A stretch of DNA of 63,866 nucleotides, counting the filler. It is 8 parts of 8 records of this genome, joined end to end, with 100 filler letters (N's around TTAATTAATTAA, not from the genome) between each part and the next. Parts side by side here need not be neighbours in the genome. Positions count along the whole stretch, not along the records: positions 13,840 to 22,040 come from SRR2962707_4832; 7 more parts are not named here. One strand, given 5' to 3'. Each line of letters begins with the position of its first letter. Position 1 is the first letter of the stretch. The translations under genes and the position numbers were made by a program. This document shows positions 508 to 33,202 of the stretch, piece after piece. Under the pieces are notes generated by a model, which was not told the origin of the DNA, did not search any database, and saw only the letters and a list, made by a program, of their open reading frames with translations.

Positions 508-509
508 AG

Positions 510-869: not shown

Positions 870-1032
870 GTTACACCCCCATGCAACCAAGATGACGTGA
901 AGCAGCGCGAAATCAACCGATGCTGAGAAAAAGATGACAGTGGTGCATCTTTGCAGAGCTGATGTGCGCGCATACCTGTGGCCATAATCCTAAGGAGAGC
1001 TAATCTAGCCCCATAAGGTAAAGGAGTGATCA

Positions 1033-2007: not shown

Positions 2008-2029
2008 CGGCACAGGCGCGTGTAATTCT

Positions 2030-5485: not shown

Positions 5486-5602
5486 TTGCCCTCACTGGTC
5501 TGATTCCCAAGATGCATGCAAGTAGGCGTGATGCATCGCGTCCTGTCAATCTAAAGACGCTAGGGAAAGAGGCGGGCCGCCGCTTATCCACAAGATATTG
5601 AG

Positions 5603-6010
5603 CTATGGCGCGGAATTGCACGAAAGACTGCGAAACGGCGGATCATTTATTCTTGCCGGTTGTTTCATCCTCAAACGGCACCCTATGGGCGTAACCATCG
5701 TATTGCCCGTCAATGGCGGCGGGCACGCCAGAACACCTGTGGCCAATGCCTGATCCCCTAAAACATCGGTCACGTCACACCCGCTGACAGCAGACATCGC
5801 AAAGGCAGCGCGATCCCTGATCGGGCCAAAACGCGGCGCGTATTCCGGATTGATCCGCATCGCTTCGGCCAGATTGCCCCGCGTCCGCACATCAAACACC
5901 GAACCGTCAACTTCGATCCGGGTCGCGGTCAGCCCCCTGAAATGCGGACCTGCTGTGTTGCAGGCGGATAGACTAAGGAGCATGAGAACGAGCAAATATA
6001 GGTTTTTCAT
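5603..6010 (-). CDS. Hypothetical lipoprotein
   Basis: Signal peptide MKNLYLLVLMLLSLSAC with lipobox LSAC. Confidence 0.7.
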   Translation of the reverse strand: MKNLYLLVLMLLSLSACNTAGPHFRGLTATRIEVDGSVFDVRTRGNLAEAMRINPEYAPRFGPIRDRAAFAMSAVSGCDVTDVLGDQALATGVLACPPPLTGNTMVTPIGCRLRMKQPARINDPPFRSLSCNSAP

Positions 6011-6081
6011 GCCCAATCGTTAGGGCACTGCGATTAACAGCCCATGAAACAGGGACAAAGATATTGTCGTCGCCCCCAGCC

Positions 6082-6098
6082 GGTCATATAATTTGACC
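6082..6098 (+). promoter_or_regulatory. Probable FadR/GntR operator GGTCA-N7-TGACC enclosing a TATAAT -10 element
   Basis: Perfect 5-bp dyad 18 nt upstream of the GntR start codon; TATAAT at 6087-6092. Confidence 0.65.
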
Positions 6099-6116
6099 AA
6101 TTCAAGGGGTCATTTC

Positions 6117-6887
6117 ATGCCATTTCAACCTGTATCGTCCGAAAAGCTATCGCAAGCAGTCGTTCGACAGGTCGAGCAGCTGATCTTGCGTGGCATCCTT
6201 CGCCCCGGCGAACGCTTGCCGGCGGAACGCGAACTGGCCAAGCGTCTTGATGTATCCCGCCCGTCATTGCGCGATGCGATTGCACGGCTGGAAAAGTCGG
6301 GCCTGCTGATCGCCAAGCCGGGTGCCGGTGTCTATGTGGCGGATGTGCTGGGGGGGGCTTTTTCCCCGCCGCTGATCGAACTTTTCGCCCGTCACGACGA
6401 GGCCGTGTTCGACTATCTTTCCTTCCGCCGAGATATGGAGGGACTTGCCGCAGAGCGCGCCGCGCGCTTGGCCTCGGACACGGACTTGAAGGTAGTCGAT
6501 ACCACCTTTCGCAAAATGGAAGCCGCCCAAGAGACGCGCACGACAGAGGACGAAGCGCAGCTGGATGCGCAGTTCCATATGGCCATCATCGAAGCGAGCC
6601 ATAACGTCGTGATGCTGCATATGATGCGGTCGATGTACGATCTGCTGCAAGGCGGCGTATTCTATAATCGCCAAGTGATGTTCAAACAACGCACCACCCG
6701 GTCAGCCCTGTTGGACCAGCACCGCGCCATCAACGACGCATTACAAGCCCGCGATCCGGCTGCCGCGCGTTCAGCAGTCGAAGCACATCTGAATTACGTC
6801 GAGAACGCTCTGCGTGACCAGCAACGGGCCGAACGCAACGAAGTTGTTGCGCATCAACGATTGCAGCACGAGACGCAACAAGACTGA
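6117..6887 (+). CDS. GntR/FadR-family transcriptional regulator (PdhR/GlcC-like)
   Basis: wHTH LPAERELAKRLDVSRPSLRDA plus FCD domain (DAQFHMAI, ASHN, QH..I, HL). Confidence 0.92.
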   Translation: MPFQPVSSEKLSQAVVRQVEQLILRGILRPGERLPAERELAKRLDVSRPSLRDAIARLEKSGLLIAKPGAGVYVADVLGGAFSPPLIELFARHDEAVFDYLSFRRDMEGLAAERAARLASDTDLKVVDTTFRKMEAAQETRTTEDEAQLDAQFHMAIIEASHNVVMLHMMRSMYDLLQGGVFYNRQVMFKQRTTRSALLDQHRAINDALQARDPAAARSAVEAHLNYVENALRDQQRAERNEVVAHQRLQHETQQD

Positions 6888-6911
6888 CGGATAAAAGGCC
6901 GCCGGAAACGC

Positions 6912-6941
6912 AAAAGGCCCCGGAGATGATCCGAGGCCTTT
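6912..6941. terminator. Probable bidirectional intrinsic terminator between GntR and atpF
   Basis: AAAAGGCCCCGGA-GATGA-TCCGAGGCCTTT hairpin between convergent stop codons. Confidence 0.7.
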
Positions 6942-6958
6942 CGTTAAGTTTGGTAAGC

Positions 6959-7519
6959 TTAGTGCAGCTTGGAATCTACATCGTCGATTGCACTTGCGAT
7001 CAATGCATTGCCTTCTGCGGCGGTCATCTTCTTGGCGATGACATCCTTTGCAGCGGCAACGGCAATCACGATTGCCTGGTCGCGTACTTCTTTAACAGCA
7101 GCAGCCTGAGCCGAACCGATTTGCTCTTCGGCAGCGGCCAACCGGCGTTCGATAGATTTCGCCAGATCGGCGCGGGCTTGATCCGCAGCCTCGGTTGCTT
7201 CGGCTTTTGCAGCTGTCACAATCCGGTCGGCTTGATCTTTAACTTCTTGCTGCTTGCGCTCGTAGCTGGCCAACAGTGTCTGCGCTTCTTCACGCAGGGC
7301 GCGGGCTTCGTCCAGCTCGGACTTGATCCCGTCTGCGCGCTTGTCGAGCATGCCCGACAACAGCGAAGGTACTTTGAAATAGAACAGAACACCGACGAAC
7401 AAGATGAACGCCAACAAGACGATGAAGTCTGTGTTTTTCAGCGAAAAGAAAACGTCGCCTGCTGCGAAAGCTGGTGATGCCACCATGCCTGCAATCAAGG
7501 CTGAGAAAGTCAAACGCAT
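6959..7519 (-). CDS. atpF: F0F1 ATP synthase subunit b
   Basis: N-terminal TM segment, LDKRADGIKSELDEA coiled coil, operon position. Confidence 0.92.
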   Translation of the reverse strand: MRLTFSALIAGMVASPAFAAGDVFFSLKNTDFIVLLAFILFVGVLFYFKVPSLLSGMLDKRADGIKSELDEARALREEAQTLLASYERKQQEVKDQADRIVTAAKAEATEAADQARADLAKSIERRLAAAEEQIGSAQAAAVKEVRDQAIVIAVAAAKDVIAKKMTAAEGNALIASAIDDVDSKLH

Positions 7520-7522
7520 GGC

Positions 7523-8074
7523 TTATCCTTTCATCCGGGCTTCGACGGCCGCGGAAACAGTTTTCGCATCAGCGGAACCACCCAAGGCTGCCACAATCGC
7601 CTGAGCGGTGTCTTTTGCCACCTCTTCGACGTTTTGCATGGCGCTTGCGCGAATTTCAGAGATGGCTTTTTCGGATTCAGCAGCTTTCTCGGCAATCTCG
7701 ACGTCTGCTTGCGCAATCGCCTTGTTCAGATCAGCTTGAATATCTGCTTTTGCGGCTGCAACGATGCGGTGCGCCTCGGCGCGGGCATCGATCAGCGCTT
7801 TGTCATATGCGGCTTCTGCCTCTGTTGCTTTGACCTTCAGGTCTTCGGCAGCAGCGATGTCATTGGTGATTGTGCCCTGGCGTTCAGCCAAAACCGATCC
7901 AATGCGTGGCAACGCAATACGGGACAGAATGAAGTAGATCGCAACAAGCGCTACGACCAGCCAGAAGATCTGGTTGCCGAACCATTCGCCGCAAAGTTGG
8001 GGCATGCCAATGGCACCGCCGAATTCGTTGACACACATGCCAGCGACTTCCATATCAATTGGTTCAGTTGCCAT
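7523..8074 (-). CDS. atpF2: F0F1 ATP synthase subunit b'
   Basis: GMPQL...NQIFWL...[12 protein letters not shown] motif of alphaproteobacterial b'. Confidence 0.92.
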
Positions 8075-8106
8075 TATGGCCTCCTGTCAAAACGTTCAAA
8101 TCCCTT

Positions 8107-8132
8107 GGGCAGCGCGCCGTAACGCGCTGCCC
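8107..8132 (-). other. Intercistronic GC-rich stem-loop downstream of atpE
   Basis: GGGCAGCGCG-N6-CGCGCTGCCC perfect 10-bp inverted repeat, no U tail. Confidence 0.7.
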
Positions 8133-8160
8133 GAAGCGTAAGGAAGTGTCAGTCTGACGC

Positions 8161-8397
8161 TTAAACGGCGAACATCAACAGCAGAGCAACGAGGAACGAG
8201 AAGATCCCCAGGGCTTCTGCAAACGCGATGCCGATGAACAGTGTTGCAGTCTGACCAGCAGCTGCCGAAGGGTTGCGCAGTGCGCCGGCAAGGTAGTTGC
8301 CTGCAACGTTGCCCACACCGACTGCCGCGCCGCCCATGCCCATGCATGCCAGACCCGCGCCAATGTATGCGCCCATTTGTACGATATCGCCTTCCAT
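8161..8397 (-). CDS. atpE: F0F1 ATP synthase subunit c (78 aa)
   Basis: Gly-rich helix, RNP loop, FAEAL ion-binding Glu; AGGAG RBS. Confidence 0.96.
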
Positions 8398-8465
8398 GAG
8401 AATTCTCCTTACGATGGAATTGAGGTGATGAAGTGGGGGCAGGTCAGAATGACCCACGCCCGTTG

Positions 8466-9224
8466 TTAGTGATGCGGATGAAGCGCGTCTTTCAGATAGA
8501 CACACGTCAGAATGGTGAACACGTAGGCCTGGATAAAGGACACCAGGATTTCGAGGCCATACATCGCGGTGATCGCGACGATGGACAAAGGTGCGATGGC
8601 AGCAATCGCGGCGAAGCCTGCGAAAACCTTGATCACGGCGTGACCGGCCATCATGTTACCCGCCAAACGAATGGAGTGGCTGACGGGGCGCACGAAATAC
8701 GAGATAACTTCGATCAGCGCCAGAATGGGGCGCAACGCAAGCGGTGCGCTGGAAACCCAGAACAAGCCCAAGAAAGACGCGCCGTTTTTGACGAAGCCCA
8801 GAATGGTGACCGCAAAGAATACCGCAAAAGCCATGATCGCAGTGACAGCGATGTGCGACGTTGGCGTGAACGCCATTGGCAGCAGGCCAAGGAAGTTCGA
8901 AAATACGATGAACATGAACAAAGTCATGATGTAGGGGAAATACTTGACCCCGTCTTTACCGCAGATGTCTTCGACCATCTTGTAGATAAAACCATAAGCA
9001 AGTTCGCCCACCGACTGCATCCGCGTTGGAATTACCGACCGCTTGGATGTGCCCAGAACCAGCAAGGCAAAAACAGCAAGAACGGCCAGCGCCATCCAGA
9101 CAGTTGCGTTGGTGATCGTGTACCAAGAAACAGCGCCATCGCCAAAGAACGGCTTAACGATGAACTGATCCATCGGGTGGAAAACCAAGCCGCCCGCTTC
9201 TTCGCCGTGTGCTTCTGCCGCCAT
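8466..9224 (-). CDS. atpB: F0F1 ATP synthase subunit a
   Basis: [30 protein letters not shown]. Confidence 0.97.
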
Positions 9225-9225
9225 G

Positions 9226-9555
9226 TCAGGGCCCTTTATCTTCTTCGACCGTTTCGGCCATCTTCTTTTCCTGGATTTCTTGCGCAGAGCGGAGCATCGT
9301 CTTTACCCCGGCCGCAAGGCCCAGCATTACAAACAGCACCATGAATACCGGGAGCGTTCCAAAGAACCAATCCAACGTGTATCCGATGCCAAAACCGATC
9401 CCAAGACCGGCGCAAAGTTCAATCACCATCCGCCAGGCAAGCGATGCCTGAGAATAATGCTCATCAACGCGGGGTTTCGGTGCTTGCGCTTGTTTCGCCG
9501 CTGCGATCTTGGCCTCAAGCTGCTTTAGTCGCTGCTGTTGGTCCGGATCGGTCAC
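9226..9555 (-). CDS. atpI: ATP synthase accessory protein AtpI/AtpZ
   Basis: [18 protein letters not shown] motif, first gene of the F0 operon, GTG start. Confidence 0.88.
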
Positions 9556-9727
9556 GCCAAAACTCCCCGTAGATGTGTTGATGTTTAGCTACTTTTACTG
9601 CCCACCCGAGTCAACAGGATAGAGTTTTTGTGTATGTCGTTGTTTTTATTGAGACTTACGAAGCTCAACCAGAGGAGATCCATAAATCAAGCGCCCCAAA
9701 CCGGTCCGAATTGGGCGCGATTGTTAT

Positions 9728-9743
9728 TCAACCTTTTGGTTGA
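9728..9743. promoter_or_regulatory. Probable ArsR-family operator TCAACC-TTTT-GGTTGA
   Basis: Perfect 6-4-6 palindrome 66 nt upstream of the ArsR gene. Confidence 0.6.
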
Positions 9744-9809
9744 GGGTCAGATCCGTTATGGGTATTTGACGCATGATCCACGTCCCTCGAACGATAACAA
9801 AGCAGTGCC

Positions 9810-10166
9810 ATGTCCGCCCAGCTAGACGCAATATTCGCAGCCCTTGCTGACCCGACCCGTCGGGCCATTTTGTCGATGCTGCTAGAGGATGACATGGCCG
9901 TCACAGACGTTGCCGAACCGTTCGATATGTCGCTTGCTGCGATTTCGAAACATCTAATCGTATTGGAACGGGCGGGCCTGATCGCGCAGGAAAAGCGCGG
10001 GCGGCTTAAGTGGTGCAAACTCGAACCCTCTGCACTGCAATCGCCATCGGTGTGGATGCAAGGGTTTGGTCAGTTTGACCCGGTAAATCTGGATGATTTT
10101 GAAAAGTTTCTGGCAGCGGAGATAAAATCGGTATCGTCGGACGCTGGATCAGTTGAGCAAGAGTAG
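9810..10166 (+). CDS. ArsR/SmtB-family transcriptional regulator
   Basis: FAALADPTRRAIL...AISKHL..LERAGLI...GR HTH. Confidence 0.92.
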   Translation: MSAQLDAIFAALADPTRRAILSMLLEDDMAVTDVAEPFDMSLAAISKHLIVLERAGLIAQEKRGRLKWCKLEPSALQSPSVWMQGFGQFDPVNLDDFEKFLAAEIKSVSSDAGSVEQE

Positions 10167-10372
10167 TTTTGCTGGCTCTTCCATGACGAGGTATTACACG
10201 AAAGAGCCATGCTTGATGTAGTTAGATAATGCCGAACGCAAAACGCAAGATGGCAAGAACAACTACGACCAGACCAATTAGATAAATAATGCTACGCATG
10301 TAACGATTCCTTTATGAACTTTCCGTGATCTAAACGCCGCCTAGACGCGGTTGGTTCCGAAATATTATTTTT

Positions 10373-11275
10373 TTATTTACCATGGTTACCGGCATCCTGA
10401 TCATTTCGCAGCAGCAGGTACAGCGCCAGAATGGTCAATGACACGCCGCCCAATACGATTGGCGATGGCGCGCCATTGCCCAACGCGATCTCCCACAGGA
10501 TCACCCAGCTTGGCGTCAAATACGTGTACGCCATAACCTTGGCCGAGGGCAGCCGCAGCGACGCGAACTGAAGCAGTACAAAAGTGGCCGAAGACGCCGC
10601 CACCGAGACGTAAAGGATCGTGATCCAAACGATAGGTGGCAGCGCCAACCAGTCCGTCCCCAACACATCCCGCCAACCGTAGATAAACAACAGCGTACCG
10701 CCCCCAATGAGCGTCCCCAGCGTGAACACCACGGCGGGCTCCCCCCTGTTCAACTTGCGCACCATCGGCGTGTAAAGGGCATGGCTGACACAGCCGATGA
10801 AATACACAGCCTCGCCGCGGCCTACCTCGAAACGTTGCAGGGCGGCCAGGTCTGCCCTGAAAATCACCCACAGCGCCCCGGCGGCCCCGATCGCAAGGGC
10901 AAATGCCATCCGCAGCGTGGTTCTTTGCCGTAGCAAAAGCCAGCCGAACCCCGCGGCAATGACAGGCGTCAGCGTGAAAACTGCCGCAGCGCTGACAGGT
11001 CGCGCGGTTTTCAACCCCTCGAACATCAGCACAAAATAGATCGCGAACAACCCGCCCAAAACCACATAGCGCCACGGCGCACGGGCAGCTTCACGCGTGA
11101 TCCCTGTTGTCGCGGCAACAGCGACTGCAATCACAACGCCAGCAATAACAAACCGCGCCGCATTCAAAGCCGCAGGCGAAATCATGTTCGCCGACATCGA
11201 CCCCAACGAAAACGACCCCGCAACGAGGGCCGAGAAGGTGAGCATTGCCAGATGCCCCTGAATATCGGGCCGCAT
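10373..11275 (-). CDS. DMT/EamA-family transporter
   Basis: About 10 hydrophobic segments in two EamA-like repeats; start overlaps the LysR stop. Confidence 0.88.
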   Translation of the reverse strand: MRPDIQGHLAMLTFSALVAGSFSLGSMSANMISPAALNAARFVIAGVVIAVAVAATTGITREAARAPWRYVVLGGLFAIYFVLMFEGLKTARPVSAAAVFTLTPVIAAGFGWLLLRQRTTLRMAFALAIGAAGALWVIFRADLAALQRFEVGRGEAVYFIGCVSHALYTPMVRKLNRGEPAVVFTLGTLIGGGTLLFIYGWRDVLGTDWLALPPIVWITILYVSVAASSATFVLLQFASLRLPSAKVMAYTYLTPSWVILWEIALGNGAPSPIVLGGVSLTILALYLLLRNDQDAGNHGK

Positions 11276-12150
11276 TAGGCGGCCGCCTTCGCGCTGTCTT
11301 TCAGAAACTTCAGCAACGCCTGCACCTTTGGCGTGCGGTGCAGATCAACATGAGTGACAAGCCAAAGCGCCGAATCCCATTCGGGCAATTGCGGATGAAC
11401 CTCGATCAGATCGGGATCATTCAGCCCATACTCATATCCGACAAACCCGATACCGGCACCGCTGAGAATGGCCGCCGTCAGTGCCTTCGTATCGAGCGCG
11501 CGAAACGCCATCGCGTCTTTCGGGACCACTGATTGCACCCATTTAAAGAAAGGTGCCCGCATTTCCATATCGTCGTGAACGACAAAACGGTGGTTGCCGT
11601 AATCCTCGACACCCGATGGCATTCCGAACCTCTCGATATAGGTGCGGTGCGCGAACAGCCCGACCCTAAGCGGCATAAAGGGCTGTACAACATTATCCGG
11701 CTGCTCGGGCACTTTGCCCGCCCGGATCGCGACATGCGCCTCGCCATACTCGAGTCGGAACAAACGTTCGCCGGTCAGGAAACGTATGGAAATATCCGGG
11801 TTCTGCTTCTGGAAATCGACAAGCACAGGTGTCACCCAGTCGACGATCTCCAACAAGGATGTCACGACCAGTTCGCCCGATACGTTCTCACCGCGGCCCT
11901 TGATGCGGTTGGCAAGCTGGCTGAACTGATCGTTCGTCGCCTGCGCCACCCGCAACAGATCCTCGCCCGCTTCGGTTGCCTTGTAGCCACGGGCGTGACG
12001 CTGGAACAACTTGACCGCAAGGCGGGCCTCTAATGCATCAATATGGCGGATTACTGTCGCGTGGTGCACGCCCAGAACCTCGGCGGCGCCGCTGACGGTC
12101 CCCATCCGCGCCACTTGATAGGCTGTCTTTATCTCGTCCCAATTGTCCAC
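11275..12150 (-). CDS. LysR-family transcriptional regulator
   Basis: N-terminal HTH GTVSGAAEVLGVHHATVIRHIDALE, substrate-binding domain; GTG start at 12150. Confidence 0.93.
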   Translation of the reverse strand: MDNWDEIKTAYQVARMGTVSGAAEVLGVHHATVIRHIDALEARLAVKLFQRHARGYKATEAGEDLLRVAQATNDQFSQLANRIKGRGENVSGELVVTSLLEIVDWVTPVLVDFQKQNPDISIRFLTGERLFRLEYGEAHVAIRAGKVPEQPDNVVQPFMPLRVGLFAHRTYIERFGMPSGVEDYGNHRFVVHDDMEMRAPFFKWVQSVVPKDAMAFRALDTKALTAAILSGAGIGFVGYEYGLNDPDLIEVHPQLPEWDSALWLVTHVDLHRTPKVQALLKFLKDSAKAAA

Positions 12151-12175
12151 TGCGGCACCCTTTTCAAACGGAGAT

Positions 12176-12195
12176 ATGTGCAAAATCGAACACAT
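12176..12195. promoter_or_regulatory. Probable LysR recognition site in the lysR/azoR divergent region
   Basis: ATGTG-N10-CACAT dyad containing a T-N11-A core. Confidence 0.5.
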
Positions 12196-12281
12196 CACCC
12201 GCATTTTTCGCAAGTTGTGTTCGCCCATGCAAGGCGCATCTATGGGACAGTATTGAAACCCCTACGAAAGGACATCCTCCC

Positions 12282-12875
12282 ATGTCAGTTCTACGCATCG
12301 ACTCTTCTGCAAACACGACAGATTCCGTAACCCGCGCGCTAACCGACCGCATCATTGCCAAACTGGGCGACACTGATGTGACAGTGCGCGACCTTGCACA
12401 TGAACCACTGCCTCAGATCACCCAAACTTGGGCCGTCGCCCGCGCCACGCCTGAGGCGGACCGTTCCCCCGAACAAGCCGCCGCACTGGTCGAATCTGAC
12501 AAACTGGTGGCCGAACTGCTGGCCGCTGATACCATCGTCATTGGTGCCCCGATCTATAACTTCAGCGTGCCTGCATCCCTGAAAGCATGGATCGATCTGA
12601 TTGCCCGTGTAGGCGTAACATTCCGCTACACCGAAACCGGCCCCGAGGGTCTGGTTAAAGGCAAGCGCGTGATCGTCGCCATGGCATCGGGCGGCGTTCC
12701 AGCTGGTTCCGAGGCGGATTTCAACACCGGCTACCTCAAGGCTGTCCTTGGCTTTATGGGTATGACCGATGTTACAGTCGTTTCGGCTGATGCGCTGGCC
12801 AAAGACCCCGAAGGCACCATTGCACGCGCCAATGAAGCCGTTGATGCGTTGGCTGCAACCTCCAAAGCGGCCTGA
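12282..12875 (+). CDS. azoR: FMN-dependent NADH-azoreductase
   Basis: LRIDSS, PIYNFSVPASLKAWID, TFRYTETGPEGL, ASGG. Confidence 0.92.
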   Translation: MSVLRIDSSANTTDSVTRALTDRIIAKLGDTDVTVRDLAHEPLPQITQTWAVARATPEADRSPEQAAALVESDKLVAELLAADTIVIGAPIYNFSVPASLKAWIDLIARVGVTFRYTETGPEGLVKGKRVIVAMASGGVPAGSEADFNTGYLKAVLGFMGMTDVTVVSADALAKDPEGTIARANEAVDALAATSKAA

Positions 12876-12886
12876 CCACCGGATAC

Positions 12887-12916
12887 GACGGGCGGGTTGA
12901 CTCAAACCTGCCCGTC
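12887..12916 (+). terminator. Hairpin after azoR, possible terminator
   Basis: GACGGGCGGGTT-N6-AACCTGCCCGTC, weak U tail. Confidence 0.55.
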
Positions 12917-13079
12917 ACTTAAACGACCCACAAATCCCGGAAGCATTATGCCTTCCGGTCTCTGGCGCGGCCAGAGATCGCCCCCCACCAGCGTGTTACG
13001 CCCGTGGGGGCATTTGTGTATTTAACGCGGGCTTCCTAAATTAGGATTCTCCGCAACCGACCGAAGGGGGCCATGGCCC

Positions 13080-13739
13080 ATGTTTGAGAACCTATCCGAA
13101 CGCCTTTCCGGCGTCTTCGACCGCCTCACCAAACAAGGTGCGCTGTCCGAAGAAGACGTCAAAACCGCCCTGCGCGAAGTCCGCGTTGCCTTGCTTGAGG
13201 CTGACGTATCCCTGCCCGTCGCCCGTGATTTCGTCAAAGCCGTCCAAGACAAAGCGACCGGCCAAGCGGTCACCAAATCGATCACCCCCGGCCAACAGGT
13301 CGTCAAGATTGTCCATGACACCCTGATTGACGTGCTGCGCGGCGAAGGCGAACCCGGCTCCCTCAAAATCGACAACGCCCCTGCCCCGATCCTGATGGTC
13401 GGTCTGCAAGGCTCCGGTAAAACCACTACGACCGCCAAGCTGGCAAAACGTCTGAAAGACCGCGACGGCAAACGCGTGCTGATGGCATCGCTTGACGTTA
13501 ACCGCCCCGCCGCGATGGAACAGCTTGCCATTCTCGGTGTGCAAATCGGCGTTGATACGCTGCCCATCGTCAAGGGCGAAAACCCCGTCCAGATCGCCAA
13601 GCGCGCCAAGACCCAGGCAGCCATGGGCGGCTATGACGTCTATATGCTCGACACTGCCGGCCGCCTGTCCATCGACGAAGAGCTGATGCAACAGGTCGAA
13701 GCCGTCCGTGACGTCGCCAACCCGCGCGAAACCCTGCTG
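13080..13739 (+). CDS. ffh: Signal recognition particle protein Ffh, 5' part (contig end)
   Basis: MFENLSERL, ALLEADV, GLQGSGKTTT, DTAGR. Confidence 0.97.
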
Positions 13740-13839
13740 NNNNNNNNNNNNNNNNNNNNNNNNNNNNNNNNNNNNNNNNNNNNTTAATTAATTAANNNNN
13801 NNNNNNNNNNNNNNNNNNNNNNNNNNNNNNNNNNNNNNN
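13740..13839. other. Artificial contig linker
   Basis: N-run + TTAATTAATTAA (stops in six frames) + N-run, 100 nt; identical linker recurs 7 times. Confidence 0.99.
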
Positions 13840-13866
13840 CACGCACGCACGCACGCACGCACGCAC
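13840..13866 (+). repeat. (CACG)n microsatellite at contig start, just 5' of the peptidase ATG
   Basis: cacgcacgcacg... directly visible. Confidence 0.95.
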
Positions 13867-13873
13867 AAACATC

Positions 13874-15630
13874 ATGCTCCAAAGCCTCCGATGTGCACTC
13901 CGCCGCAGCCTTTACAGATGCGGAGTCGCCAAACCACAGCGCAACTTCCTCGGCTCTCACAGCCTGTCCTCGTCGTCCTCAGACACTGGGCCATCCAGTG
14001 AAAGTGAACCCGCTGCTGCGGACGCGGCCCGTGCGTTCACAGACCGAGCCATGCCGGACGATCAGTTCACGTTCATGCGCGACGTGCTGGCAGCCCCGAG
14101 TCCGGTTGGCCTGGAAGCGAGCATGACCCGCGGAGTGCTTGAAGATAGGTTCAACGAGCTGAAATCCAAGCACCAGCTCGACACGTGGGGCTACCGCACG
14201 TTCAAGGGCAACGCAGGCGTTGTCTGGGAGAGCAACCCTCTGCCTCAACAGGCAAAGGACCCAAGTGATCAGCGGCTGAACGTGATGGTGATTGGGCACG
14301 CCGACAAAATCCGCATGCAAGTGCGAAGCATTGGCAAAGACGGCAAGATATGGATCAACACGGATGCTTTTTTGCCAATATCGCTTCTCGGCAACGAGGT
14401 GCGCATATTTTCCTCCGGGCGCACCGGGTCGAACGCAGAAGACATTGGAGACAGCGCCTCAAGCCCGCAGTTCCATACAATCGATGCGACCGCGGAGGCT
14501 GTAGGAGCTATTCACTTTGCTCCAGCAGCAGTTCGTAACGGGAAAGAGGGCCTAAAGGAGACGGATATTTACTTGGAACTTGGACTGCACGGCAAGGATC
14601 GGCAAAAGCAAGTTGAGGTTCGTTTCCCAAGTCAACGTGCTGGGCGTGACTTTACTTTGCCGCTGTTAGTGATTGAGAGAGGTCAATCGTTCATGTGCGT
14701 TTGCACGATGACTTTCTGGCTGTAGGATCTGGGGATCCGTGTGGGCGATCCTGTACTCCTGAACCGTCCAATTAAGCGATGCCACGCCGCCCAAAACACC
14801 TTCTCAGGAGCGTACTTGGACAACGGATTGGGCTGCTTCGTGGCAGCTGAAGTAGCTCGCCTCGTTGCTGAACGTGGGCTTGGCAAGAACACCACTGGAA
14901 CGCAATTGAACTGCCAATTTGCATTTTCTGCGCACGAAGAAATCGGCCGCTTTGGGTCGCGAATTTGTGTCGCTGAGTGCCGACCGGATGTGCTTATTGC
15001 AGGTGAGGTTCTTTCTGCTGAATTGTCGTCGTGCAAACTGCTTTTGATGCCGGTATTGCAACAAGCACACGCAAGCATTACGCAGTGTGCTCCTGCTTGT
15101 TGCAGTTGATGTCAACCACGACTACGAAGCTGCACCACGCGTTTCGGCTGAGCGGTCCGTTTTCTTGTAACATGACGCTTGCTTTTGAGCTGGACCGCGG
15201 CGCAGTTTTGCATGCATTTCTGACAAGCCAAGGGTCCAACCTGCAATGTAGGTACCAACCTCTGACCATGGGGTTAGGAATGACCCTCAGCGTTGGATCC
15301 ATTGTGTCTGAACAGTTAAATGCAACAATTGAGCGAGCGGCTGAGCGCCGTGGTATCCCTGTCCAGCGCGATGTTCGAGGGCGCGACACTGGAACTGATG
15401 GCATGGCTGGCGTACTCGGCAACGTTGACTGCGCTGCAACATCTGTCGGGTTCCCGATTCGTAACATGCACACAGTCAGTGAACTTGGTCACACAGGGGA
15501 CGTCCTAGCTTGTATTGAAGCACTTTACGGCACTCTGGAAGACCTTGCCAAAGAAGGTTTTCACGGCGACAGTCTGCGCGATGGACACCCGCGGCTTGAC
15601 CAGGCCTCCCCATTGACGAAACACTCTTAA
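13874..15630 (+). CDS. M42-family (TET-like) metallo-aminopeptidase, eukaryotic, 4 exons, N-terminal presequence
   Basis: GT-AG introns 14618-14725, 15003-15105, 15155-15251 give a continuous frame with metal ligands GHADKI, YLDNG, HEEIG, DVNHD, GTDG, RNMHT. Confidence 0.85.
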
Positions 15631-15800
15631 AAAGGATGGGAGGAGTCCATCAAACACGGTGGAAAAATACGGCCTTTGGTCTTCAGTCTCGACGATCATT
15701 GATGTCGCTACATTTTACTTTTAATTCCATGCACGTGTCACGACCTTTTTATCATTCCACGGACACTTTCGCGTTTGCGACCCAGGCGTTGCGACAAGTT

Positions 15801-18800
15801 TCACTGATCAGTACCATCCGCTTTCCCGAAAGCCCCACCTCCTGGGGTATCGATGACGAACGTGTCCCCTGGTCGCATGTGCACTGATCCACGATTTCCA
15901 AGGTCCTCAATGCCTTCCTCCTTTCCATCAGGACCACGACGAATTACGTAGTTTCGCCCAACTTCTCCTTCGCCTCCGCCTTCAAGGCCAAACGTTGGGA
16001 CCTTGCGGTGGTTGGACAAAATTTGAGCTTCCATGGGCTCGAGAAATCGAATTGCTCGATGAATGCCGTCCCCTCCTTTGAAGTGACCTTGGCCGCCAGT
16101 GCCACGTCGAATTGAAAACTCATCGAGCAGCACCGGGTATCGGAATTCAAGAATTTCAGGGTCTGTGAGTCGTGTGTTGGTCATGTGGGAGTGCACTGCA
16201 TCACATCCAGGACCTGCCATGACACCACACGACAAAACAAATCAGACTGACGGAGCAAATGCCAAGCGGGCGCTGGGCCTTTGGCGGCCATTGCCGTGAG
16301 CCTGTTGGACATCAATAACTGCACGAACCATTCGGGCTGGCGCCTGTGCCGCCGCAGATCGTTTCGTAGTATTGCTTGTCGCCCTCATTACCGAAAGTGA
16401 AGTTGTTCATGGTGCCCTGACTTCCAGCTAGAACACCCAGAGCACCATAGAGTGTTTCGGTAACCATTTGTGAAACCTCGGTGTTTCCTGCAACTACAGC
16501 AGCTGGGTAGCTAATATCCACACAACGATTTGACAATCAGAAGGAAAATCAACCACCGAAACCGGTGGAATGCACAAAGTCTGCTCACTGGGAAAGGGTT
16601 TGGAAAGCAGTGAATTCACACACCGTGGGTTGATCATGCTCCCTTCTGGGAGAATGATGTTGAGCGGCTTCAAGCAACCTTCGTTCAACGGAATGGAGTC
16701 TTGAACAAGCGTGCGGAATACATACAGAACCGCCGCCATACCAATTGCCTTGGGGGCGTTAAAATTGTTGTCTCGCTGCTCGGAAGTTCCAGTGAAGTCA
16801 ACCGTTGCGCTGCGGGACTCCTAGCGATCAAAAGGTGCAAGCGCAAAGAAATTTGGTTCCCTGACGACAACATCCAATCCCAGGACAAGCGCTTGCAACA
16901 GCTTCAAATGTCGTCCGGACCTGATCAATGGACACCTTGCAAGTGATGTGACCTCCATCGTCGTCAGCATAGGTAAATTCTCCGTCTTGAAGTACGTCAA
17001 TGACGCGGCGCACACATTCTTCTGCGTTGTCCATCACGTATTGCATGTAGGCTTGAACAACAGGAAGAGTGAACTGGTCGATCATTGCATGAAGCTCAGT
17101 GATTCCACGCTCATTTGCCTGACCGTATCACCAAAAGTGAAGGATGGATGAGCAAATACGCAGGATTAAGACTGAGTGAAAACATTTTCAACGTGCATGA
17201 TTTCATACCGCAATCTGGGCGCGCAGATCCGACAGGTTGGTATTGATGTTGCGACTTGGGTAAGGGCCTGCAAGCAAGCACCCGACAGAACAAGTGGGCC
17301 ACGCAAACTGCGTTGCCGTGCAAGTGGACACAATTCTCAAATTCCAAACGAAACAGAACAGGAATGTCCGAGCACCTGATTTCAGCAGATCAACTATGGC
17401 TTCTTCACGGAAGCTTCCGTGGGATCCGTCCACGAGCTGGAAGTTGTCAATAAGGATGCCCTCCTGCTCAATGTGAGTGCTAAACGGTGGGATAGAGCCT
17501 GGTGTGATGCCACCAATTTCCTGATGGTGACCGCGAGAGCCAACCCAGAACAGGGGCTCAGGGCGCGAACCGGAGTCGTTGGGGCCCCGCTCATGCTCGG
17601 ATTTGTGGAAAACTGGAGTGATGACAGTGACGTCTGGAATGTGAGTCCCTCCATTGTACCTGGAGGCAGGAGCAAGTCCAATGAGTTTTTGCAAGGGGCA
17701 ACTTCGCAAGCGTTCCTTCAATAAAAGCCACCACAACTCTGTGGCGTGACTTACGGAGCATTGGTGACGAACACATCCCCCGGAATACAAGTGTCACCCC
17801 GAAGCGAGATGATGTTGCGAATGGCATCCCCCATGCTGCCCAAGTGCACAGGGATATGTGGCGCATTGGCAATTAATTGACCCTTGTGGTCAAAAAGTGC
17901 GCAGGAAAAGTCGAGGCGCTCCTTGATATTCACTGAGTGAGATACGTTCTCCAACGTTGCCCCCATTTGTTCAGCAACCGACATGAACAGGTTATTGAAG
18001 ATTTCCAGTGTGATGGGATCTGCTTGATCAGTCCCTGTGGAAAACCATGCAGCGATGTACCCAATGGGCAAGTTATCAAGTTATTTGGCAGTGCAATAAT
18101 TCAAAGAATACGAATAATTTTCCACCTACCAATTGCAGTTTCTTTCTTCTGAGGAACCATGCGTCTCAGCACAAGTGCCCCCATCTCGGTGAGCGATGCC
18201 TCCCATTCCGGCTCCACTACAGTCGTGCTATTAAATTCGCGAATAATTGCCGGACCTTGAATCTGCCAAGGCCCAATCACAATTCCATAACATCATGCGA
18301 GTCTTCTCTTGAAATCGTCAAACGGAATAAAACGCTTGCGTCAAAAGCACTTACCCGACTGTCGACGGTCAGATATTGCCGATCAAAAACGCCGGTGCGA
18401 TGCCACTGATCGCCGGCAAACATGTCAATCACTTCCTCCGGAGTCGCTGGCTTTCCATTGGATGGCGACGGGGCAAACGACGCAATGGAACTAGGATTGG
18501 ACGCATCGTGGCCCGGACGACTGACTGCTTCGACACCAAGAGCTTCCAGGATCAATGCCTTGTGGTCCACAATGAACCCATATTGTTGTCGGTGAGCTGC
18601 CTCAAAGTTGCGCTGGGTCTGCTCGATGCTATCCGGCACTAAATCCACCACCTTCACGAAGAAACAACATCAAGGCACAACCCAAGTGAGTAATGGAGAG
18701 AGGGTCGGCAAGGTTCACACAACACGTTGCCACGGCAAGTGGAGGCGGTACCAAGGCGGTATCGGTCCCTTCGTATCGAATGTGGGCTTTGAGTACAACG

Positions 18801-21636
18801 TCGATTTCGTGATTTGGAACATCTTGCTCCAGAAGCTCGCGAACAGTCCCATCTTCGAGTCGAGACTGCACTTCTGGCACCACAGATCTAAGAGACTCTT
18901 CATTCAAAGGAACCTCAATAGTCTCTTCGAGCATCGAGCGCACGTTGGCCTTCAGCCGCAGAAGCACAACGCAAATTCATAAAGTTGCGACAGGAGAAGA
19001 CCACCACGGTGTGCACGAGCACGACCGACGAAAAGAACATTCAGCAACCAAACTGCAAGCTCGCACCAGCCCCATGCCGTATGCCGACAGAACTCCACTG
19101 AAAGGGTGCAGCATGATTGACTCCATGCCAAGAGCATCTGCGACTTGGCACGCGTGCTGGCCTCCAGCACCACCGAAGCAGCAAAGCGTGTAACTAGCAG
19201 TCACATTGACCCGCATTCCACAAATCAAATCAAACTGCACTTCGTGCCGAAAGTAAAAGCCAAACGCAAACAAACGCCGGAAGCACAAAAGCGATTCACT
19301 AACCCAGTGATGTCATGTCCGCGCTTGACGCTGATGTCCTTGATGGCTGTTGCCATGTTATCAACAGCGATGCGAAGATATCCAGCCTGCGTACACCCAA
19401 TTGCGTGTTCATACCGTGATGTATCTTGAAGCAGACACGGCACGATCAGAAAATCGTCAAGTACGCGAGACCACTTTTCGGCACTGCACCTACCGCAGTC
19501 TGCTCGGGGGTGAGAGGTTGCACCAATGGATTCGCAGCGTTGATTTCCTCCGTCAATGTTGCAAACTTGTCTTTCACGACGTCAACATCGAGCGTTTCGT
19601 CTGCCTTGTGGCCAAAGATGTTGCCGAAGAACTCTGGGCGGAGCCGGCCCAGGAGAACGTTGCAGTCAGTAACGGCCAAAGGGCCACCTCGTCGGTATGA
19701 GGCCTGACCCAGCAAACAGTGTTCACAATGCGATATCAGATCACGGCGAACCAGCAACATATCTATTGGAACTCGAAAGGAAGGGCAGCCCTTGTGCAAC
19801 CACCGCCACAAGAGCCAAGGTCACGACACCCAAATCGAACGAACCGGTCCGGGGCTGGCACCAGCAGATGCAGGACCAACTCGCATGCGGGCACCGTCGA
19901 AGGTGAGAATGGAGCCGCCACCAGCCTGAAAACAAGGAAATCACCGTTTGAATCATTGACAGCAATCTCGCCTTGCCGGTCGCCAGGTGAGTATTTCGCA
20001 AACCAACAACAGCGACACGAACCGCCACAGTGTGAATTCGCATCATTGGAGCGCGCATGCGCACTCCGGCAACCTCTGTGTTGAAGGTTCGTTCGAATTC
20101 ACCTGCAAGTAAAGGTTTCAAGAAGTACGTGAATAAAACTAGACCCGAAAGCAGTATTACCATGTGCAGATGCAGAACGAAAGCGGAGGCAACCACACCA
20201 TCGTAGTGAGCGACATCTGTCGACGTGCCACCCATATCAAAACCAATGATGCGGGAAAAGTTTTCGGCCTCGCAGGTGACAGCAGCACCTACAATGCCTC
20301 CTGCTGGACCACTGAGAATACTGTCCTTGCCCTGGAATAGATGCGCCGCCTGAAAAGCATGCCCCAATCGCCAGAACAATAAGCATCGGCACGACATTCG
20401 AGGGGCTAAACATCAACGGTCGGGTTGATTTCGAAAAGCAAGCCAACAACCATTGTACCTTCAATCCTCCATTTGATTGCATGAACATCAATTGGGTTCC
20501 GTCGAGCTCGGAAGCAACCTGTCGCAAGCCAAATTACGCTCAGTCAGAGTGCGTTCACAGTACAGAGTACCCCTGATTTTCCATCTGTGCATGTCATGCA
20601 GCGTGTCCGGATTACGCACCTGGTCGACATATCGGCGTAAAATCGGAGTCAGGTACGCGTCCACAGTGGTCGTGTCACCCCGGCTGACCAGCTTCATCAA
20701 AGGGCTAGTTTCATGTGACACGGAGATTTGCGTGAAACCGATTTCCCTTGCAATGTCAGCGATTGCCTTTTCGTGCTCGGTGTACCGATAGCTGCACCCG
20801 GGTATATATACATCCGGGTTTGGGCACGGACATACAAACACCACCGATCAAAACACGAAATCGATCCCAGCCATGCAAATCAAGCATTGGTGCGGGGAGT
20901 GAGCGAGATACCAATCGCCATTGCCAGCACGCACGGCTTACCCATGCATCATCACCACCGCCACGCCTCGAATGCCGGAATCGTAGACTTCTTGCAGACG
21001 CGCCCGCGTAACATTTGGGTCAATGGGAGCGAGTTCCTCTCCTGCTGCCGAGAATCGCCCGGGTACTTCCACGGCACTCTCATACAGGAGCTCGGGCAAC
21101 TTTATGTCGAGTGCGAAGATTTCCGGGCGGTTTTGATACCCGATCCGCAGCGCGTCGCGGAACCCCTCGTTGGTGACCAGCGCGACTCGGTCACCCTCGC
21201 GCTCGAGAAGCGCGTTCGTGGCCACAGTGGTGCCCATCTTCACCGTGCGGATCCGCTCAGCGGGGATCGGGTCCTGCGGGCGCAGTCCCAAGTGATGGCG
21301 AATGCCCTGCAGAGCCGAGTCTTTGTAGACACCCGGGTTCTCCGACAGAATCTTCGAAGCTTCGAGCGTACCGTCCGGCTTCTTCGCCACAATGTCAGTG
21401 AACGTCCCACCGCGGTCGATCCAGAACTCCCACAGGCTGCCCTCAGCAGCTTCACCGGTGGTGGTGGTGGTGGAGGAGGAGAAGGAGGAGGAGGACGACG
21501 ACGACGAGAGCACAGGAGCGATTGAACGAGGGCAGCGATTCAGAAACCCAGCGACGCCAGCTCGCTGACGCTGACGATGCAAGAAAGACGCATTCGAAGA
21601 CCGGCGCAAGGCTGCCCTCCACAGTTGCGCTGACAT
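15801..21636 (-). CDS. ATP-dependent 5-oxoprolinase (fused hydantoinase A/B type), about 19 exons
   Basis: [97 protein letters not shown], joined by 18 GT-AG introns. Confidence 0.92.
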
Positions 21637-22040: not shown

Positions 22041-22140
22041 NNNNNNNNNNNNNNNNNNNNNNNNNNNNNNNNNNNNNNNNNNNNTTAATTAATTAANNNN
22101 NNNNNNNNNNNNNNNNNNNNNNNNNNNNNNNNNNNNNNNN
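22041..22140. other. Artificial contig linker
   Basis: N-run + TTAATTAATTAA + N-run. Confidence 0.99.
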
Positions 22141-33189: not shown

Positions 33190-33202
33190 ATTCTTCTCCA
33201 CC

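Follow-up and report, generated by a model that had tools for sequence, protein, structure and literature searches.

A spliced nuclear gene for a long-form M42 aminopeptidase with a putative mitochondrial presequence in a marine stramenopile

INTRODUCTION

The TET-peptidase literature, as represented by PMC12516491, treats M42 as a prokaryote-only family with M18 as its eukaryotic counterpart, and the initial annotation of the DNA studied here was right that the field regards M42 in this way. The archaeal and bacterial M42 enzymes are cytosolic, both by that source and by general knowledge of the family. Several TET enzymes have been solved, including Pyrococcus TET3 (2wzn, 4x8i), TET2 (1y0r), a thaumarchaeal TET (5ds0) and Bacillus subtilis YsdC (1vhe). 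The enzyme reported here shares 17–25% identity with them, and its mature part is longer by about 60–70 residues. In this comparison, it alone has the N-terminal region and the HPRLD tail of its subfamily, and only its gene is a spliced eukaryotic one that adds an N-terminal extension.

Closer homologues exist in databases. The bacterial long-form proteins of Halomonas sp. LS-001 (P0025) and H. dongshanensis (P0027) share 57–58% identity with residues 60–482 over their full length, and have the same N-terminal region, HPRLD tail and Pfam pattern. However, they carry only 8–15 residues, including acidic ones, before the conserved core, and their genes lack introns and stand alone with no conserved neighbourhood. 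Database names of the bacterial long-form proteins vary among 'M20/M25/M40 family metallo-hydrolase', 'endoglucanase' and 'M42 family metallopeptidase'. On the eukaryotic side, Hondaea fermentalgiana GBG30860.1 and EukProt entries from Diaphanoeca grandis, Savillea parva, Acanthoeca spectabilis and Rhodelphis marinus belong to the same subfamily (51–58% identity to P0294, the EukProt counterpart of our protein), all with a basic, acid-free N-terminal extension. To these entries the present gene adds intron-bearing genomic DNA, evidence of splicing from a public run and a gene order conserved in a relative. M18, represented by human DNPEP and yeast Ape1, is the TET-like family known from eukaryotes; our protein has no match to its profile (PF02127), and M18 structural scores are lower.

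Our literature search yielded no publication describing an M42 enzyme in eukaryotes or in mitochondria. A match in the Leishmania literature proved to be an M20 protein with clan overlap and was discarded. In the main text of PMC12614181, on the organism named by EukProt, the terms 'M42', 'aminopeptidase', 'peptidase' and 'oxoprolin' are all absent; its supplements could list the gene. The enzyme had been called unrecognised, which holds for the papers that we searched but not for the databases, since EukProt contains homologues and the Hondaea one is annotated as M42 in NCBI.

RESULTS

Gene structure and splicing

The gene was found in a 63,866-nucleotide stretch of DNA consisting of 8 joined contigs (hereafter the window). 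It has four exons, which when joined give a coding sequence of 1449 nt that has no internal stop and encodes 482 amino acids (Table 1); the unspliced reading frame is broken three times. All three introns were seen to be removed in a single 2069-nt contig of public run X2, which skips 108, 103 and 97 nt at exactly the three intron places, each gap being GT..AG after the cut shifts stated by the aligner; run X2 is taken as RNA by guess only, as no run is listed as RNA. A contig of run X1, which is probably the source DNA, retains all three introns, and runs X3 and X4 yielded matching pieces of 151–181 nt only, too short to suggest a habitat or strain. Consistent with the X2 contig, the EukProt protein labelled Incisomonas marina (P0294) is identical to residues 60–482 across all three junctions, and in an alignment of the spliced product with seven homologues no junction carries a gap. 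The exon pieces also match the Pfam M42 profile collinearly, with a weak match for exon 1 (profile positions 10–59), 42.7 bits for exon 2 (P0002; positions 106–187) and 42.3 bits for exon 4 (P0003; positions 206–291). The gene is a genuine spliced, expressed, eukaryotic nuclear gene and no contaminant. The three GT-AG introns of the initial annotation, and its argument that introns speak against contamination, are thereby borne out by the X2 contig and P0294, and the latter argument also by a neighbouring gene that is itself intron-split.

At the 5' end, the X2 contig covers exon 1 from 13876, with codons 2–59 contiguous with the remaining gene. The stretch 13840–13875, which includes the ATG, was masked as a repeat in the X2 mapping, and coverage of the start codon is only implied, by 38 further contig letters. 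The frame is open upstream of the ATG to the contig edge at 13840, so that, judged from this contig by itself, translation may start earlier. In the closest relative (locus L081, protein P0004), the start ATG aligns with that at 13874, and an in-frame TGA 7 codons upstream bounds the open reading frame.

Based on the identical EukProt protein and its label, the host is a heterotrophic marine stramenopile of the order Nanomonadea, an order that we take to be heterotrophic and without a plastid.

Table 1. Coordinates of the M42 gene, its parts and its neighbour in the window
Feature	Coordinates	Strand	Description
Whole gene	13874..15630	+	4 exons, 3 GT..AG introns, 482-aa product; start ATG 13874-13876, stop TAA 15628-15630
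Exon 1	13874..14617	+	Codons 1-248; presequence-like extension, conserved N-terminal helix region, H142 with D144, most of the PDZ-like dimerisation domain
Putative mitochondrial presequence	13874..13981	+	Residues 1-36; basic, acid-free, Ser-rich
Linker	13982..14050	+	Residues 37-59; acidic, Ser/Ala-rich; ends in conserved ADAAR-x-[FY]-T right before Met60
HxD metal-site motif	14297..14305	+	H142-A143-D144, from alignments
Intron 1	14618..14725	+	108 nt, GT..AG, phase 0; skipped in X2 contig; junction crossed by P0294
Exon 2	14726..15002	+	Bridging ligand D280, E319-E320 pair; P0002
D280 codon	14819-14821	+	Exon 2
E319-E320 codons	14936-14941	+	Exon 2
Intron 2	15003..15105	+	103 nt, GT..AG; skipped in X2 contig
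Exon 3	15106..15154	+	49 nt; ligand D342; X2 contig piece spans 15100-15153
D342 codon	15108-15110	+	
Intron 3	15155..15251	+	97 nt, GT..AG; skipped in X2 contig
Exon 4	15252..15630	+	Ligand H430, C-terminal HPRLD motif (long-form subfamily), stop codon; P0003
H430 codon	15469-15471	+	
5-oxoprolinase gene	15801..21636	-	Convergent neighbour; Hydantoinase A and B domains; many introns; not part of the enzyme

The convergent neighbour encodes a 5-oxoprolinase with Pfam matches to Hydant_A_N, Hydantoinase_A and Hydantoinase_B, and the same tail-to-tail M42/5-oxoprolinase pair occurs in the relative L081. The N-terminus of this neighbour is also presequence-like and much like the M42 extension. 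5-Oxoprolinase is cytosolic in yeast and plants. Elsewhere in the window, three contigs look bacterial by their ORF lengths (1–13739, 29954–38387 and 58523–63866), the first of them carrying an SRP54-type GTPase motif. A prokaryote-style gene call at the M42 locus comprises only a 224-aa fragment (P0061).

Family assignment, metal site and fold

P0294 matched the Pfam Peptidase_M42 profile (PF05343) with 127.6 bits (E 6.7e-37; cut-off 23.2). Its score against the Pfam M28 profile, 19.8 bits, fell under the 21.3 cut-off, and Pfam returned no M18 (PF02127) or M20 match at E <= 0.01. Consistently, the NCBIfam M18 model PRK02813 reached 19.2 bits where its cut-off requires 356. No NCBIfam equivalog reached its cut-off, the best scoring 80.1 bits against 412, so that specificity cannot be transferred from these models. 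A PDB sequence search with the close relative P0004 returned M42-type chains only (11 of 11; best 4x8i, 3.2e-18), and the motifs of P0004, the same as those of the window protein, align with their counterparts in two solved M42 enzymes, 4x8i and 2wzn.

Every one of the four exons contributes metal-site residues, namely H142 and D144 on exon 1, D280, E319 and E320 on exon 2, D342 on exon 3 and H430 on exon 4, which confirms the complete M42 ligand set noticed in the initial annotation. From the solved M42 enzymes we take H142, D280 (bridging), E320, D342 and H430 to be the metal ligands, E319 to be the general base and D144 to be the aspartate of HxD. The ligand columns were invariant or nearly so in a 50-sequence alignment.

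The AlphaFold2 model (pLDDT 91.1, pTM 0.92) has the two-domain M42 fold, in which a PDZ-like dimerisation domain is inserted into a catalytic alpha/beta domain. In a Foldseek search with this model, every row above rank 41 was M42-type, with 5ds0 as the best match (E 1.4e-27; TM-score 0.88, normalised by target length), and M18 structural scores lay below those of every M42 chain in ranks 1–27. Profile and structure searches therefore both favour M42 over M18, M20 and M28, as had been proposed. On these comparisons, the protein is a long-form M42 metallo-aminopeptidase with a full two-metal site and a predicted activity.

Predicted dimerisation

Prediction of a two-copy complex gave a score of 0.54 (0.00, 0.54 and 0.54 in three runs), and the best of 3 controls scored 0.00. 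Of 30 proteins solved as same-chain pairs, 21 reached the score mark, whereas none of 23 solved as single chains did so; among eukaryotic proteins 17 of 29 reached it, but of the 7 without an older solved relative only 1 did. Because M42 dimers have already been solved, the score may reflect model memory. Contact agreement between the runs was at least 0%, and the partner pLDDT was at least 76. The predicted interface comprises residues 97–216 of P0294, in the dimerisation domain, and residues 368–378, adjoining H371 (H430 in the full-length protein). The model supports M42-type dimerisation as a prediction of binding rather than a demonstration of it. A dodecamer, and the substrate class, we infer purely by analogy with the solved M42 enzymes at 17–25% identity.

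The N-terminal extension

Acidic residues are absent before D37, and the first 25 residues contain 6 R/K, in agreement with the acid-free extension that had been noticed earlier. When the protein sequence was shuffled 20000 times, only 45 of the shuffles were equally extreme. The maximal 10-residue Kyte-Doolittle mean of the extension is 0.43, which implies that it has no hydrophobic signal-peptide core; signal peptides require far higher hydrophobicity. By eye, we found no PTS1, PTS2 or signal peptide, the C-terminus (...TKHS) not being of the SKL type. GC content by codon position across the extension was uninformative.

The layout of a basic stretch, a serine run, an acidic stretch and a conserved motif is common to the window protein and its relatives P0004/L081 and L118. 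More broadly, all seven labelled eukaryotic members have an extension of 29–69 aa whose first 25 residues contain 3–6 R/K and no D/E, and for each of these proteins 45–474 of 20000 shuffles were equally extreme. In contrast, one or more acidic residues occur there in 33 of the 34 named bacterial rows, and in 26 of the 34 the core is preceded by only 8–15 residues. The presequence-type composition of the initial annotation is thus shared by the labelled eukaryotes and is missing from bacterial members. A further 24 unlabelled rows, presumed eukaryotic, were chosen by their N-termini and place in the tree, and for this reason their features are not independent evidence. A cluster look-up of 10 eukaryote-like proteins without labels added no taxon names. 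Judging from these sequence features, mitochondrial import of the enzyme is likely; the localisation is read entirely from N-terminal composition.

Relatives and evolution of the subfamily

The long-form subfamily has many representatives in Halomonadaceae and in further bacteria, its bacterial members being mostly Gammaproteobacteria, Myxococcota and Planctomycetota. Besides the entry labelled Incisomonas marina, its labelled eukaryotic members come from choanoflagellates, Rhodelphis and a thraustochytrid. The ESM Atlas returned large bacterial clusters only and is silent on eukaryotes. The window protein has the marks of the subfamily, namely a mature length of about 415–450 aa, the N-terminal PW..PMP..QF..MR.IL.APSP.G.E region (with AF in place of PW) and the C-terminal HPRLD. 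The exon-1 part matched only 117 representative clusters at E <= 0.001, indicating that the N-terminal half is subfamily-specific.

P0056, P0058 and P0060, being truncated or odd, were removed from 57 matches before a tree of 98 rows was built, and 64 of the 98 rows entered a careful tree and an AU test. The window protein paired with P0004 at 100/100, within a 12-row clade (98/96) that holds five of the seven labelled eukaryotes. The three choanoflagellate rows lie inside this clade, and Hondaea and Rhodelphis lie outside it. The AU test did not reject a single split between 25 named bacteria and the seven labelled eukaryotes (p 0.563). Rooting with distant outgroups (P0084, from a Magasanikbacteria MAG, and P0091, P0104 and P0110) placed the eukaryotes as a basal grade and the bacteria as a shallow crown; however, the outgroup branches are 1.6–3.1 substitutions per site long, and because of the risk of a long-branch artefact we draw no direction of transfer from this rooting. 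The eukaryotic and bacterial long-form members are, on their sequences, compatible with one inter-domain transfer in either direction. A phylogeny with EukProt and bacterial homologues had been suggested at the outset; it allows the single split without giving a direction.

Other features bear on the origin of the gene. L081 lacks the three introns of the window gene and has a 75-nt GT..AG intron of its own elsewhere. Among 30 flanking ORFs at 11 loci of bacterial long-form genes, no family was common across lineages and no hydantoinase was found. None of the best 80 bacterial loci was titled as an alphaproteobacterium, which, with the mostly gammaproteobacterial, myxococcotal and planctomycetotal membership, gives no support to the endosymbiont relic that the initial annotation had entertained. 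The bacterial acquisition proposed alongside it stays plausible, although the transfer may have run in either direction; the distant outgroups give a basal eukaryotic grade, in a rooting that is prone to artefact.

DISCUSSION

We favour a reading in which the window encodes an Incisomonas-type nuclear M42 aminopeptidase that is imported into mitochondria and acts as a dimer or a TET-like assembly; the full account, transfer included, we consider moderately probable. Translation from the ATG at 13874 would produce a basic, acid-free presequence of about 25–36 residues, which would direct the precursor to the mitochondrial matrix and then be cleaved, with QRNF/LGS as a candidate R-3 type site. 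The mature enzyme would dimerise in the M42 manner, would probably assemble further into a TET-like dodecamer, and would trim oligopeptides residue by residue from the N-terminus so that amino acids are recycled. Its substrates may be the peptides that matrix proteases and the removal of presequences leave behind. One inter-domain transfer would have been followed by long residence in eukaryotes, as suggested by the different intron positions of close relatives.

The most serious competitor, though still rather unlikely, places the same aminopeptidase in the cytosol, either because translation starts at Met60 (14051) or because the extension does not function in import. The stored EukProt ORF, which has 4 accession numbers, begins at Met60 without the extension, and such a form would be cytosolic; the Hondaea homologue is named 'Cytoplasmic M42 family peptidase' in NCBI, and a cytosolic enzyme would match the archaeal and bacterial ones (PMC12516491 and general knowledge of the family). 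However, codons 2–59 are joined to the rest of the gene in the spliced X2 contig, conservation continues upstream of Met60 with the ADAAR-x-[FY]-T motif common to P0004 and L118, and the bacterial homologues begin about 10 residues before the equivalent Met. The relative's ORF, moreover, begins at the aligned ATG directly after an in-frame stop, and all seven labelled eukaryotes have kept a basic, acid-free extension despite sequence divergence. It is far less probable that the extension leads elsewhere, for instance to the secretory path or the peroxisome, or serves two compartments. Composition alone does not separate mitochondrial from some other N-terminal signals, and the very similar N-terminus of the neighbouring 5-oxoprolinase suggests that targeting signals in this lineage may be unusual; yet the extension has no hydrophobic core, neither an SKL-type PTS1 nor a PTS2-like nonapeptide was apparent by eye, and the host's order presumably lacks a plastid.

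The remaining alternatives concern what the protein is rather than where it resides. An M42 fold with a different activity, that of a deacylase, an 'endoglucanase' or an 'M20/M25/M40 hydrolase', would suit the names given to some bacterial members, the lack of an NCBIfam equivalog at cut-off and the subfamily-specific N-terminal half (117 clusters at E <= 0.001). We give it little weight, as all the metal-site and catalytic residues of an aminopeptidase are conserved and, according to PMC3511314, 'endoglucanase' labels on M42 proteins are erroneous for tested members. Least credible by a wide measure is a bacterial gene on a contaminant contig with illusory introns, a notion prompted by the three bacterial-looking contigs among the window's 8 and by the prokaryote-style call P0061 on the same DNA. 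Without splicing the frame breaks three times, the neighbour on the same contig is also intron-split, and the identity of the eukaryote-labelled P0294 across all junctions, together with the exactly spliced X2 contig, refutes it.

A broader version of the mitochondrial reading would make the eukaryotic members an old clade of self-compartmentalising M42 enzymes, established early in eukaryotes, patchily kept in at least three distant lineages (Bigyra stramenopiles, acanthoecid choanoflagellates and Rhodelphis) and mitochondrial throughout, with the shallow long-form radiation in halophilic and marine bacteria as its sister or derived from it. We regard this version as doubtful.

Mechanistically the finding is modest: the enzyme does not stand out within its bacterial subfamily, and homologues have already been deposited, one of them under an M42 name. 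The locus also illustrates how eukaryotic members of 'prokaryotic' families can hide, the prokaryotic gene caller having cut this gene to P0061 on a mixed assembly. For the family, the gene is a clean counter-example to a prokaryote-only M42, being intron-bearing, expressed and nuclear, with labelled M42 relatives in three distant eukaryotic lineages. To our knowledge, other eukaryotes clear mitochondrial peptides with unrelated enzymes. If the presequence works, these protists would have a TET-type aminopeptidase inside their mitochondria, and if the ancient mitochondrial M42 clade proved true, the restriction of M42 to prokaryotes would be overturned and a new tier of mitochondrial peptide turnover would be added.

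Splicing and expression of the M42 gene

The exons listed in the table below joined into an open 1449-nt frame of 482 codons plus stop, and the spliced product aligned with seven homologues without a gap at any exon junction. P0294, a 423-aa protein labelled Incisomonas marina that has four EukProt accession numbers, matches part of this product exactly, covering residues 60–482 and crossing all three junctions. Furthermore, a 2069-nt contig from public sequencing run X2 matched the gene as four segments and left out 108, 103 and 97 nt; after the stated cut shifts, all three omitted stretches were GT..AG. An 8200-nt contig from run X1, a possible source of the DNA itself, retained the introns. 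X2 is RNA by guess only, an exactly intron-less copy being what transcript assembly gives. Because these three independent lines (homologue alignment, P0294 identity and the X2 spliced contig) agree, we take the four-exon product as the true mature form. The three GT-AG introns of the initial annotation are thereby borne out, and the locus is almost certainly a real, spliced and expressed eukaryotic M42 gene.

Coordinates of the M42 gene, of other features of the window and of the filler
Feature	Position	Strand	Remarks
Start codon	13874	+	ATG
Exon 1	13874-14617	+	744 nt
Insertion in PDZ-like domain	14414-14467	+	residues ~181-198
Intron 1	14618-14725	+	108 nt, GT..AG
Exon 2	14726-15002	+	277 nt
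Intron 2	15003-15105	+	103 nt, GT..AG
Exon 3	15106-15154	+	49 nt
Intron 3	15155-15251	+	97 nt, GT..AG
Exon 4	15252-15630	+	379 nt
Stop codon	15628-15630	+	TAA
5-oxoprolinase	15801-21636	-	many introns
Putative fused nitrile hydratase	38620-40047	+	476-aa ORF
Ank/WW/BART protein	40727-44092	-	1122 aa
FAD-dependent oxidoreductase (DAO family)	44584-46465	+	domains over several ORFs
Alpha-N-acetylglucosaminidase (NAGLU)	47015-50704	-	domains over several ORFs
Spacers	13740-13839, 22041-22140, 29854-29953, 38388-38487, 44320-44419, 51017-51116, 58423-58522		

A (CACG)n-type repeat (13840-13873) begins the contig directly upstream of the ATG, with the frame open through it. Genomic and spliced public contigs both end at about these positions, so these sequences do not show where the gene really begins. 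A public prokaryote-style call, P0061 (224 aa; 14051-14725, +), begins with Met60 and continues into intron 1, exemplifying how eukaryotic genes in mixed assemblies become shortened 'bacterial' proteins in large collections. At the other end (15631-16214), the X2 contig continues for 454 nt beyond 15760 and so enters the final exon of the convergent gene for oxoprolinase; coding in that exon reaches up to 16241 with the stop at 15801, leaving the two stops 170 nt apart. The overrun reflects either overlapping 3' transcript ends or an assembler merge.

Family, active site and predicted structure

The exon translations matched Pfam Peptidase_M42 collinearly (profile 10-59, 106-187 and 206-291 of 292). 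The choice between M42 and M18/M20, which the initial annotation had left to be checked, fell to M42: P0294 scored 127.6 bits against the M42 profile (E 6.7e-37; cut-off 23.2), was below the cut-off for M28, and had no M18 or M20 match reported in the Pfam search. The NCBIfam M18 model gave 19.2 bits (cut-off 356), and no M42-type NCBIfam equivalog reached its cut-off, the best giving 80.1 bits against 412. The Pfam score together with these sub-threshold equivalogs marks the protein, at the sequence level, as a clear M42 member of a subfamily without a specific model.

The full ligand set claimed across the three introns was located over all four exons: H142 and D144 in exon 1, D280, E319 and E320 in exon 2, D342 in exon 3 and H430 in exon 4. 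All seven metal or catalytic residues were invariant or nearly so in a 50-sequence alignment, and the same motifs in P0004, a close relative, align with the solved TET3-type enzymes 4x8i and 2wzn. The AlphaFold2 model of residues 60-482 had a pLDDT of 91.1 and a pTM of 0.92, and Foldseek returned M42-type chains in all rows above rank 41, where the first M18 chain stood. The protein is very probably a working aminopeptidase. An insertion of ~18 residues (GRTGSNAEDIGDSASSPQ) in the PDZ-like domain, relative to all aligned homologues, is also present in the EukProt protein, and is modelled with low confidence (block pLDDT 62-63).

The two-copy complex prediction scored 0.54 (best of 3 controls 0.00; one of three runs 0.00), with the runs agreeing in at least 0% of contacts and a partner pLDDT of at least 76. 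Of 30 proteins whose structures were solved as same-chain pairs, 21 attained the complex-score mark; of 23 solved single chains, 0 did. The prediction thus supports, and does not show, that two copies bind each other, and since M42 dimers have already been solved, the passing score may stem from structures that the predictor had memorised. The predicted interface is formed by the PDZ-like domain together with the loop adjoining H430, as expected of an M42 dimer. We give a TET-like oligomer an even chance.

Distribution and phylogeny

Among 1.84 billion representatives, the exon-1 part alone found 117 representative clusters at E <= 0.001, indicating that the N-terminal half is subfamily-specific. 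When 8000 candidates were scored with a profile built from 16 full-length members, 1483 reached E <= 1e-20; of the 120 listed, almost all those with a name belong to Halomonadaceae and other halophilic Gammaproteobacteria, with one Persicimonas, under names that include 'M20/M25/M40 family metallo-hydrolase' and 'endoglucanase'. In a collection holding a single genome for each prokaryotic species, a relative was encoded at 595 of the 600 pattern matches. Titles of the best 80 loci named Halomonadaceae, Granulosicoccaceae, Ectothiorhodospiraceae, Thiotrichales and Chromatiales, besides Bradymonadales and other Myxococcota, Planctomycetota, Verrucomicrobiales and Anaerolineales. EukProt was the source of six of the 57 matches of at least 435 aa: the acanthoecid choanoflagellate Diaphanoeca grandis, Savillea parva and Acanthoeca spectabilis (which we take to be acanthoecids as well), Rhodelphis marinus (Rhodelphea), the thraustochytrid Hondaea fermentalgiana, and P0012, an entry without species label.

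In a tree of 64 rows and 419 columns (LG+C20+F+G4 by PMSF), the window protein paired with P0004 at 100/100 inside a 12-row clade (98/96) holding five of the seven labelled eukaryotes, including three choanoflagellates, while 24 of the 25 named bacteria fell in a short-branched group of 28 rows (89/77). Separating labelled bacteria from labelled eukaryotes took 2 changes on the best tree, and 1 change sufficed in 44% of the 200 bootstrap trees; a single split was not rejected by the AU test (p 0.563), and the tree constrained to it was 2.3 log-likelihood units better than the free tree. With distant outgroups added, the eukaryote-like rows formed a basal grade, under a long-branch-join warning. 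Because the outgroup branches are very long, we infer neither a bacteria-to-eukaryote transfer nor the reverse. The proposal of an endosymbiont relic proved unsupported: nothing points to the ancestor of mitochondria, and no alphaproteobacterial title occurred among the best 80 prokaryotic loci.

The N-terminal extension and the site of action

The acid-free N-terminal extension described initially was confirmed, the first acidic residue of the product being at position 37. Six R/K occur among the first 25 positions, no hydrophobic core was found in residues 1-36, and the basic stretch is followed by a Ser run and then an acidic linker. Only 45 of 20000 shuffles of the protein were equally basic and acid-free over the first 25 residues. 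All seven labelled eukaryotic members carry an extension of 29-69 aa with 3-6 R/K and 0 D/E in the first 25 (88-474 of 20000 shuffles), and both P0004 and another relative, L118, repeat the layout of basic stretch, Ser run and acidic linker before the conserved ADAAR-x-[FY]-T. Of the 34 named bacterial rows, 33 contain D/E within their first 25 positions, and in 26 the core is preceded by only 8-15 residues; five longer bacterial N-termini are probably over-extended ORF calls.

A basic, acid-free composition is expected of a matrix-targeting presequence, which makes mitochondrial import the most likely reading, and judged by this composition the enzyme would be mitochondrial with fair probability. 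A cytosolic enzyme, which we consider rather unlikely, would agree with the stored EukProt ORF, which starts at Met60, and with the Hondaea homologue, named 'Cytoplasmic M42 family peptidase' in NCBI; a further point against import is that cover of the window ATG by the X2 contig is implied rather than shown, 13840-13875 having been skipped as repeat in contig placement. The start ATG of P0004 aligns with the window ATG and has an in-frame TGA 7 codons upstream.

The closest relative and the 5-oxoprolinase neighbour

P0004, the closest relative (63% identity over exon 1, 76% over residues 60-482), comes from two metagenome contigs, L081 and L082. Unlike the window gene, its gene lacks the three introns; it has instead an in-frame 75-nt stretch (L081 ~7281-7355) that starts with GT and ends with AG, and by our own reading of L081 its removal restores the conserved IEA-x-YGT-x-EDLA. 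Intron positions therefore differ between these close relatives, which looks like intron turnover. A prokaryotic gene caller read through the stretch, giving P0004 25 extra residues.

The convergent neighbour is a 5-oxoprolinase gene (Hydant_A_N, Hydantoinase_A and Hydantoinase_B), and on L081 (6001-13450) and L082 an M42 gene likewise lies tail-to-tail with a 5-oxoprolinase gene that is split by introns. The window 5-oxoprolinase has a ~60-aa N-terminal extension before the conserved WEFWIDRGG, basic and acid-free and then with a Ser/Thr run, resembling the M42 presequence MLQSLRCALRRS; the L081/L082 oxoprolinase likewise begins with a basic, acid-free stretch, MSAQLLRSFARSTHLRVAK. In yeast and plants 5-oxoprolinase is cytosolic. 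The pairing may reflect functional linkage or simply shared ancestry.

Make-up of the window

The window consists of eight separate contigs, with 100-nt N spacers around 'ttaattaattaa' between them; it is not one molecule, and as bacterial-looking and eukaryotic-looking contigs are mixed, features should not be read across the gaps. The M42 gene starts the second contig (13840-22040; 8201 nt, GC 0.535). Contigs 1-13739, 29954-38387 and 58523-63866 look bacterial by ORF lengths, the first having a final ORF with an SRP54-type GTPase motif by reading of the sequence. ORFs in the remaining five are short and broken; four of these, the M42 contig included, have Pfam domains split over several ORFs or eukaryote-typical, and the Pfam search of contig 51117-58422 gave no match. 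A single ORF holding nitrile hydratase beta (N- and C-terminal parts) and then the start of the alpha chain encodes, by its domain order, a beta-alpha fusion of this enzyme; the contig is eukaryote-like, and an Ank/WW/BART protein is encoded alongside. Fused eukaryotic nitrile hydratases are described in choanoflagellates and other protists. The split domains of the DAO-family and NAGLU genes suggest further intron-split eukaryotic genes.

Meaning for the M42 family

Considered by itself, the enzyme is unremarkable within the bacterial long-form M42 subfamily, and the gene is not a new kind of system. That it had gone unrecognised holds in part: our full-text literature search turned up no publication about an M42 enzyme of eukaryotes or of mitochondria, and the main text, supplements aside, of the paper on the EukProt-named organism (PMC12614181) does not mention the enzyme, but the Hondaea homologue already bore the M42 name. 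The new element is the documentation of M42 in the nuclear genomes of eukaryotes, together with introns, expression, microsynteny and a conserved extension of the targeting type. The window gene is thus a clean exception to the prokaryote-only rule stated for M42 (PMC12516491), and it poses a question on peptide turnover in protist mitochondria that can be tested.
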